From positions 128,001 to 192,000 of the forward strand of contig JBGPFC010000002.1 of assembly GCA_041483195.1 (NCBI GenBank): a DNA stretch of 64,000 nucleotides, read 5' to 3'. Under the pieces are notes generated by a model. The model did not search any database. It was given only the letters and a program-made list of their open reading frames with translations, and was not told the origin of the DNA. The position numbers and the translations under genes are program-made. Shown in pieces: positions 10,555-11,291 of the stretch (its first letter is position 1; every line of letters begins with the position of its first letter). The stretch comes from Candidatus Eiseniibacteriota bacterium (GTDB lineage: Bacteria > Eisenbacteria > RBG-16-71-46).

Positions 10555-10956
10555 ATGTCCCACATTCTCATCGTCGATGACGAACCCACCACCTCGTGGG
10601 CGCTCGCGGAAGGGCTGTCGGACGACGGCTTCAGCATCGACACCTTTCGCAGCGCCGAAGACGCGTGGGCCTGGCTCCAGGGTGGGCACAGCGACCTCGT
10701 CATCTCCGATCTCCGGCTGCCGGGCATGAGCGGACTCGAACTCGCTCGCAAGCTACGCCGCGGCCGCCACGCGCAACCGGTCATCATCGTGACGGCGTAC
10801 GGCACCCCGGAGACGATCCGCGACCTGCGCGGCGCGGGTGTCGCCGACTGCTTTACCAAGCCGTTCCCGATCGATCGGCTGCGTCGCTCGGTGCGCCTCG
10901 CGCTCGAGGCCGCCGCCCAGCGCGCCCGCCGGCGCCGCAAGGCCGCGGCGTGCTGA
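10555..10956 (+). CDS. Single-domain response regulator (REC)
   Basis: ILIVDDE, VISDLRLPGMSGLEL, IIVTAYG, KPF. Confidence 0.92.
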   Translation: MSHILIVDDEPTTSWALAEGLSDDGFSIDTFRSAEDAWAWLQGGHSDLVISDLRLPGMSGLELARKLRRGRHAQPVIIVTAYGTPETIRDLRGAGVADCFTKPFPIDRLRRSVRLALEAAAQRARRRRKAAAC

Positions 10957-11291
10957 GCCGCCCCGCCTCGCAACGCGCGCGCGGCCTCAGGCGCGCCCCC
11001 GCGCCGGTGCGCCAGCTCGCGGCGCTCCATTCCGGCCGGGCGCGGATTCGCGCCGCGCTCGAACATTGCGCGGAGCAGGAACGCGCGGTGCTGGCCCTCA
11101 TGTTGTTCGAGCGCCTCACGCCGGCGGAAGCCGCGCAGGCGCTGGGGATGCCGATCACGGATCTGCTGCGCACCTACGACGCGCTGCTCCGCGAGCTGCG
11201 GCGCGCGCTGCGCGGGCTGAGATTCCGATCGAGGCTCACGCAGGACGGCCGCACCCGCACCGCGTCCGAAGCGCGCGTGAGGGAAGCCTGA
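10950..11291 (+). CDS. Stand-alone sigma70 region-4-like HTH protein, paralogous to the FliA C-terminus
   Basis: ALEHCAEQERAVLALMLFERLTPAEAAQALGM aligns without gaps to FliA [32 protein letters not shown]; start overlaps the upstream stop. Confidence 0.75.
   Translation: MLSRPASQRARGLRRAPAPVRQLAALHSGRARIRAALEHCAEQERAVLALMLFERLTPAEAAQALGMPITDLLRTYDALLRELRRALRGLRFRSRLTQDGRTRTASEARVREA

Follow-up and report, generated by a model that had tools for sequence, protein, structure and literature searches.

In a 64,000-nucleotide stretch of DNA (the window) from a member of Candidatus Eisenbacteria, an uncultured phylum of soil and sediment, we analysed the gene at 10950..11291 (assembly GCA_041483195.1, contig JBGPFC010000002.1). 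Judged from its sequence, its 113-amino-acid product is a region-4 domain derived from sigma28, standing alone in the middle of a conserved unit between a single-domain response-regulator receiver (REC) and a small protein that we call, after its predicted fold, the hairpin protein. This sigma4-like protein most likely acts by binding other proteins, as the middle member of a REC/sigma4-like/hairpin module. Our leading reading, to which we assign a probability of roughly 0.35, is that it is a receiver-gated mimic of sigma region 4 which competes with region 4 of FliA, the sigma28 encoded 1.2 kb downstream, for an inhibitor (a FlgM homologue or the hairpin protein), that is, a partner switch on sigma28. 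The features on which the argument turns are the following.

10555..10956, forward strand: single-domain response-regulator receiver (REC), 133 amino acids, ATG at 10555 (Pfam Response_reg 8.8e-27)
10950..11291, forward strand: sigma4-like gene, the unit's middle gene; stand-alone sigma region-4-like protein, 113 amino acids
11291..11563, forward strand: hairpin gene; conserved protein of 90 amino acids here and 81-91 elsewhere, of no known family
12478..13302, forward strand: FliA/WhiG-family sigma28 with regions 2, 3 and 4 (Pfam r2, r3, r4; TIGR02479 248 bits vs cut-off 189.6)
7310..7510, forward strand: accepted as a FlgM homologue, after csrA; start uncertain

Kinship, fold and recognition helix of the sigma4-like protein

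The preliminary description of this DNA, made from its letters alone, had given an ungapped alignment of the protein with region 4 of the FliA in its operon, with a set of conserved letters, and had noted that regions 2 and 3 are absent; both statements were borne out. In a single BLASTP comparison, residues 37-67 matched FliA residues 214-244 without gaps (15/31 identical, E 2e-6). The profile A4, the sigma4-like family alignment of 102 sequences, was compared with the seven FliA proteins of such clusters (the window and six related genomes) and aligned over 63 ungapped columns (target 26-88, FliA 203-265; probability 96%, E 3.6e-9), which span all of region 4. Run over the 33,692 six-frame open reading frames (ORFs) of its own genome, A4 found FliA as the top non-self match (38.4 bits, E 2.3e-9), followed by region 4 of a 291-amino-acid sigma factor (G000:C6:63283-64155, reverse strand; 34.3 bits) and by smaller sigma-like ORFs, probably of the extracytoplasmic function (ECF) type, at ~20 bits. 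In five flagellated relatives, region 4 of the cluster FliA scored 40-49 bits and that of a second, flagellar FliA 29-40 bits; the cluster FliA was the best non-self match in four of the five and tied with another sigma factor in the fifth. These rankings therefore point to kinship with a sigma28-type, and not an ECF-type, region 4.

Pfam places Sigma70_r4_2 on the window protein at 19.9 bits, below the cut-off of 25.7, over model positions 2-40 of 54, so that the recognition helix is not covered; Sigma70_r2 and Sigma70_r3 have no Pfam match in it, and a protein with neither region 2 nor region 3 cannot be a sigma factor. Over the 102 family members at E<=0.01, Sigma70_r4_2 was matched in 57/102, Sigma70_r4 in 44/102 and PhyR_sigma-like, weakly, in 7/102. 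The AlphaFold2 (AF2) model (pLDDT 77) has helices at 18-38, 42-53, 58-65 and 69-87, forming a four-helix domain that ends in a helix-turn-helix (HTH), with Arg-rich, disordered tails. In a Foldseek search of the PDB, the top ranks were taken by sigma region-4 domains and whole sigma factors at probability ~1.0, with weak E-values (best 9.5e-3) and with non-sigma chains low in the ranking. The matches include SigL region 4 with RslA, AlgU, WhiG with RsiG (PDB 7lq4), sigma-E region 4 on DNA, and sigma28 with FlgM. In fold and in closest sequence kinship, the protein is thus like region 4 of FliA and WhiG. Pfam gave no match to a STAS domain at E<=1, and here the protein differs from HsbA, the Pseudomonas anti-anti-sigma factor discussed below, whose fold class is STAS; what we have instead is a sigma-domain look-alike.

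The gene itself is real and under purifying selection, as indicated by the ratio of nonsynonymous to synonymous substitution rates (dN/dS), the check that had been proposed for it: 0.14-0.34 in seven closer pairs, with 0.41 and 0.70 in two distant pairs whose synonymous sites are saturated. Its codon-position GC content (0.78/0.59/0.89) is like that of the neighbouring genes. A word-indexed search returned 10 relatives, nine of them 109-114 amino acids long and one a 63-amino-acid fragment, while an exhaustive profile search with the family gave 1116 matches at E<=1e-3; the 89 database representatives at E<=1e-10 measure 56-161 amino acids, all except one below 137. Among the best 150 matches of the profile search no fusion of REC to the sigma4-like domain was seen, and the longer proteins among them (16 scanned) were either sigma factors of the ordinary ECF or group-3 kinds or other proteins with region 4 only. 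A count of 37/41 genomes at E<=0.01 was inflated by cross-matches to sigma factors, and we did not use it as a distribution. Stand-alone proteins named "Sigma-70 region 4 domain-containing", of ~90-110 amino acids and with region 4 only, also appear in the ESM Atlas in Planctomycetota, Actinomycetota, Bacillota and phages; unlike the present family, these look-alikes are feature-based, without alignment or context, and none is known in a REC/hairpin/fliA setting.

The degenerate -35 recognition helix, also part of the preliminary description, stood up to comparison across the family. Where the window FliA has SESRVSQ the sigma4-like protein has PITDLLR, and over the longer stretch PITDLLRTYD replaces the ISESRVSQVH of the cluster FliA proteins, so the recognition helix of FliA is not conserved. 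Among the 102 members the exposed positions of helix 4 (70, 71, 73, 75, 77 and 78) are the most variable of the domain, with entropies of 2.8-3.1 bits, and only R74 and Y76, each ~73% conserved, stand out on that helix. Conservation reaches 90-98% at R45, L48, L50, L52, E54, R55, L56, E60, A62 and L65 of helices 2 and 3 and at L83, and 77-88% at R30, R32, A36 and L37 of helix 1. In the seven cluster FliA proteins, region 4 is invariant, ISESRVSQVH included. The variable face of helix 4 argues against a FliA-like reading of -35 elements and against a conserved operator; most likely, then, this protein no longer reads DNA in the manner of FliA.

It is against this background that an ordinary DNA-binding role has to be weighed. 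The sigma4-like protein might be the HTH output of a split response regulator, a NarL/FixJ-type protein cut in two and working under the coupled REC, with operators in or near the cluster. Both sigma region 4 and the LuxR-type HTH are DNA-binding folds, and sigma-E region 4 on DNA is among the structural matches; R74, Y76, R84 and R85 are fairly conserved, the tails are rich in Arg, HTH_23 is matched in 49/102 members at the threshold given above, and the coupling to REC is tight. We nevertheless consider this unlikely, since the base-reading positions vary freely among orthologues of an otherwise highly conserved cluster, GerE is matched in only 1/102 members (E 2.4e-5) and not in the window protein, the best 150 matches hold no fused REC-HTH relative, and such a regulator leaves no role for the equally coupled hairpin protein.

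Two further alternatives start from RNA polymerase. A free region 4 might dock on the beta-flap tip of the core enzyme, compete there with region 4 of FliA or of other sigma factors and inhibit or modulate holoenzyme formation, and the concentration of the most conserved residues in helices 1-3 (R30, R32, A36, L37, R45, L48-L52, E54-L56) fits this, as that side of region 4 is presumably the one that packs on the flap. We take the same surface to be the one covered by anti-sigma factors, however, and this conservation therefore does not discriminate; we regard a flap binder as improbable. The idea that the protein supplies region 4 in trans to a region-2 partner has a precedent in the two-subunit sigma factor SigO-RsoA of Bacillus subtilis. 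It is very hard to credit here: the cluster has no region-2-only gene, Pfam finds Sigma70_r2 only in FliA, itself complete, and the recognition helix is degenerate.

The three-gene unit and its setting

The coupling to a single-domain REC gene that had been described was confirmed, and it extends one gene further than was then noticed: the REC and sigma4-like pair was seen, the equally coupled hairpin gene overlooked. The GTG start of the sigma4-like gene (10950) shares bases with the REC stop (GTGCTGA, with TGA at 10954-10956), and its own TGA (11289-11291) shares bases with the ATG of the hairpin gene at 11291 (TGATG). REC stop and sigma4-like start overlap in all 13 loci read at the nucleotide level, and sigma4-like stop and hairpin start in 11/12, the twelfth having a 5-nucleotide gap. 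The order REC, sigma4-like, hairpin, adjacent and on the same strand, holds in 42/42 loci from 41 genomes of two families (f1 and f3). These 41 were taken from 89 genomes with a hairpin match, with the aim of at least one per genus; G026 (unpublished) and G063 (match at a contig end) were left out, and a strict distance filter passed 39/42 loci, the remaining three being confirmed by hand. The REC protein keeps the acidic pocket, the Thr and the Lys.

Several genes of this operon end in ..RRAS, ..RRAA or ..RLEA (11270..11291 in the window; loci L020-L025; the REC and FlhG ends too). The best explanation of these endings is that the last codons contain the GGAGG ribosome-binding site of the next, overlapping gene, so that translational coupling extends from gene to gene between REC and the DHp-only gene listed below. 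For the same reason we set aside the conserved C-terminal RLRRAS of the sigma4-like protein as a protein motif, because the GGAGG of the hairpin gene lies within these last codons.

The hairpin protein is the most obvious candidate partner of the sigma4-like protein. It has two predicted helices, H21-45 and H48-69 (model pLDDT 83), preceded by an invariant N-terminal T8..D12..P18. All 344 of its database relatives are unnamed; Pfam and NCBIfam gave no match for the window protein, a fold search of the model returned nothing beyond helical hairpins of a generic kind (ROP, ferritin, designed proteins; E>=2.2 throughout), and recognition in the ESM Atlas stayed under the useful mark, with unnamed clusters only. 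A complex prediction for the sigma4-like protein (A4) with the hairpin protein (A5) gave ipSAE 0.00 in two runs with no control pairs, and carries no weight either way.

Such a constant neighbour also suggests that the two proteins might be a dedicated pair, modulated by REC, with a target other than FlgM or FliA, such as the cluster's FlhG-like ATPase or its NtrC-type activator. The hairpin gene invariably sits between the sigma4-like gene, which it follows, and flhG. In the phylum sample it occurs only in f1 (80/88) and f3 (8/10), where the sigma4-like gene adjoins it upstream in every locus examined, and in 0/107 genomes of the other families. Nothing supports a contact with FlhG or NtrC, however, and the nearest relative of the sigma4-like protein is region 4 of FliA, which points to a FliA-related surface; we therefore think it distinctly unlikely that the pair serves another target.

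The unit is predicted, from promoter pattern and gene order, to be made from a sigma54-dependent promoter as one operon with the FlhG-like gene and FliA. The window contains a single TGGCAC-N6-TGCA element, where 0.05 would be expected, and 23/25 loci contain one each, representing ~19 distinct genomes once duplicate loci are allowed for; the two loci that lack the element are unrelated ones. A position of the element just upstream of REC was confirmed in the loci that were spot-checked, and rpoN is present in the genome. A second, sigma28-type promoter precedes csrA and the FlgM homologue; a looser pattern for it (spacer 14-16, GCCGA[T/A]A) has three matches genome-wide. Its two other matches, G000:C25:42802 (reverse strand) and G000:C39:1694 (forward strand), precede ORFs of 439 and 486 codons. 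The remaining features of the cluster are listed here.

4312..6843, reverse strand: SpoIIE/PP2C phosphatase, 843 amino acids; weak match to PDZ; membrane-bound, to judge by eye; divergent from csrA
6893..6918, forward strand: sigma28-type promoter TAAG-N15-GCCGATA, 58 nucleotides upstream of csrA; 1 match in the window vs 0.00 expected
6976..7230, forward strand: csrA (Pfam CsrA 4e-26)
7576..8814, forward strand: PAS histidine kinase; start uncertain
8681..10189, forward strand: NtrC-type sigma54 activator (REC-AAA+-Fis HTH); start probably later than 8681
10500..10515, forward strand: sigma54-type promoter element TGGCAC-N6-TGCA, ~40 nucleotides upstream of the REC start
11524..12462, forward strand: FlhG/MinD-like P-loop ATPase (Pfam ParA/CbiA/AAA_31; NCBIfam MinD-type below cut-off); start 11524 or slightly later
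13299..13700, forward strand: DHp-only protein, 133 amino acids; HisKA/DHp domain only, H-box HHEINNAL, no ATPase domain

The local order thus runs from the divergent PP2C gene through the sigma28 promoter, csrA and the FlgM homologue to the PAS kinase and NtrC genes, and then from the sigma54 promoter through REC, sigma4-like, hairpin, flhG-like and fliA to the DHp-only gene, after which come a GGDEF protein and a REC-GAF kinase. The GTG start of the DHp-only gene overlaps the fliA stop (GTGA), and a similar ORF of 138 amino acids follows fliA in locus L015; its product could partner the single-domain REC, either in phosphotransfer or as a modulator of kinases. A large unannotated ORF occupies the place and orientation of the PP2C gene in loci L022 and L024. 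No STAS or RsbW-type partner was seen in the cluster.

The FlgM homologue, flagella and distribution

The protein at 7310..7510 had been called FlgM-like, and the comparison of families agrees, by an indirect route. Only its C-terminal ~35 amino acids are conserved (RW.RV..ARARIA.G[FY]YDR.DV...L.DA.L.EL), Pfam FlgM matches one of the nine family members (E 0.014), and the window ORF is matched by neither Pfam nor NCBIfam. The family profile A6, however, matches G025:C4:162071-162199 at E 1.6e-9, and the ORF overlapped by this match has a Pfam FlgM score of 28.4 bits, above the cut-off, with flhA on the same contig ~32 kb away. By this link to a Pfam-validated FlgM we accept the window protein as a FlgM homologue. 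A sequence search of the PDB with the FlgM-like profile found only a chance helicase stretch (E 0.45).

The distribution was read from a single phylum-wide sample of 206 genomes. The counts, in which the unpublished G026 is included in the f3 tallies for the hairpin gene and FliA, are given for the phylum and for four families.

FliA: phylum 194/206; f1 82/88; f3 9/10; f2 3/3; f18 39/41
FlgM homologue: phylum 168/206; f1 83/88; f3 8/10; f2 3/3; f18 39/41
FlhA: phylum 67/206; f1 26/88; f3 0/10; f2 3/3; f18 0/41
Hairpin gene: phylum 89/206; f1 80/88; f3 8/10; f2 0/3; f18 0/41 (0/107 genomes in the other 16 families)

The REC/sigma4-like/hairpin unit is accordingly confined to two families, f1 and f3, of one order. 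The genome of the window (96.8% complete) yielded no FlhA, FliP, rod protein or flagellin, which bears out the earlier premise that flagellar export is absent from it. The step from there to a decoy does not fit the distribution. The same cluster is found in the flagellated f1 genomes G004, G008, G012, G020 and G023, in some of which the sigma4-like gene is shorter and more divergent, and the unit is missing throughout f18, which has no FlhA; the loss of FlgM export is therefore not what the unit tracks. We accordingly rejected the notion that it replaced flagellar export after flagellar loss. The distribution still leaves room for a FlgM decoy as such.

Flagellated relatives have two sigma28 genes (G004:C17, G008:C77, G012:C103, G020:C107 and G041:C1), one of the cluster type, 76-84% identical to the window FliA, and a second, 36-38% identical, 2-2.5 kb from flhA. 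The window FliA is thus a paralogue retained in genomes that no longer have flagellar genes, and the unit belongs to the sigma28 paralogue cluster of one order. A second FlgM-type match was found in G020, G023 and other flagellated genomes. In G022, a closed single-contig genome that has kept the whole regulatory cluster, FlhA lies in three separate pieces (G022:C1:1690443-1692397), which looks like a flagellar gene caught in decay.

Known partner switches, the proposed mechanism and its meaning

Among the closest published analogues is the PhyR/NepR/sigma-EcfG switch of Alphaproteobacteria, in which, according to the excerpts of PMC4598750, PhyR works by sigma-factor mimicry and holds NepR with both its sigma2-like and its sigma4-like halves; the same excerpts describe FlgM as wrapping sigma28 and covering determinants on sigma2 and sigma4. 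In the terms of those excerpts the present system is similar in having a sigma-like domain that is not a sigma factor, a receiver that we propose to gate it, a small helical protein alongside and a sigma factor in the neighbourhood. PhyR, however, is one ECF-derived polypeptide with an N-terminal sigma2-like plus sigma4-like part and a C-terminal REC, whereas here, in a different phylum, the domain is sigma4-like only, its kinship is with a group-3 sigma28 and REC is a separate upstream gene. No sigma2-like half and, among the best 150 relatives, no fused REC was found. The earlier description of a split PhyR-like pair consequently holds as an analogy and does not extend to membership in the PhyR type.

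A precedent for the proposed target is HsbA of Pseudomonas aeruginosa, which the excerpts of PMC5085249 present as an anti-anti-sigma factor that sequesters FlgM inside the cell, independently of export and switched by phosphorylation. As far as those excerpts go, the HptB-HsbR-HsbA system combines phosphorelay control with a diguanylate cyclase, and the present cluster likewise has a REC, a GGDEF protein, kinases and a PP2C phosphatase. In the abstracts of PMC7005675 and PMC8325347, WhiG is a further sigma28 that non-flagellated organisms have retained, and RsiG is the small helical anti-sigma factor that holds it. RsiG belongs to Actinomycetota and works with cyclic di-GMP (c-di-GMP); by eye, the hairpin consensus has no RsiG-type c-di-GMP motif.

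In the mechanism that we favour, the sigma4-like protein would offer an inhibitor the same surface as region 4 of FliA. Candidates for that inhibitor are the FlgM homologue, whose gene lies behind csrA, and the co-translated hairpin protein; competition for the inhibitor would set the amount of FliA free to join RNA polymerase, with the phosphorylation state of REC deciding whether the mimic is available. The whole would then parallel the PhyR/NepR/EcfG partner switch, but split into separate proteins and directed at sigma28; from the binding steps to the direction of the effect, this is what we infer from the genes. The support comes from the kinship to FliA region 4, the variability of the recognition helix, the gene order, the stand-alone form, the logic of the sigma54 and sigma28 promoters, the homology to FlgM, the precedents of PhyR mimicry and HsbA, and the weak PhyR_sigma-like matches in 7/102 members. 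Stated in full, namely that a free-standing sigma28 region 4, gated by a separate receiver, titrates a FlgM-type or new hairpin-type anti-sigma factor, so that two-component signalling and not export sets sigma28 activity, the proposal is tentative, and we would call it rather doubtful as it stands.

Several observations weigh against this mechanism. Neither Pfam, NCBIfam, the fold search nor the ESM Atlas brought out a resemblance of the hairpin protein to any anti-sigma factor. The sigma4-like protein has a sigma4 half only, while PhyR, on the account excerpted from PMC4598750, needs both halves for NepR. The partial conservation of R74 and Y76 and the very basic character of the protein make some nucleic-acid binding, of an unspecific kind for instance, possible. 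Finally, the unit occurs in flagellated genomes and so is not tied to the loss of FlgM export, and the non-flagellated f18 keeps both FliA and FlgM without it.

In the full-text literature, with subscription journals mostly outside it, we found no published description of a sigma28 mimic or of a REC/sigma4-like/hairpin unit. How sigma28 is released from FlgM without flagellar export is a question for many non-flagellated organisms that keep FliA, as the tallies for this phylum illustrate (FliA in 194 genomes, FlhA in 67), and family f18 poses the same question without the unit. Three small proteins, the FlgM homologue and FliA make a compact set of candidates for it. If the proposed mechanism is true, sigma-factor mimicry has evolved on two or more occasions, drawing on different groups of sigma factor and taking different architectures, and the present mimic would be the first outside the PhyR system of Alphaproteobacteria and the first made from region 4 alone. 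If the mimic reading is wrong, the three genes would still be a conserved regulatory unit in a cascade that outlived the flagellum.

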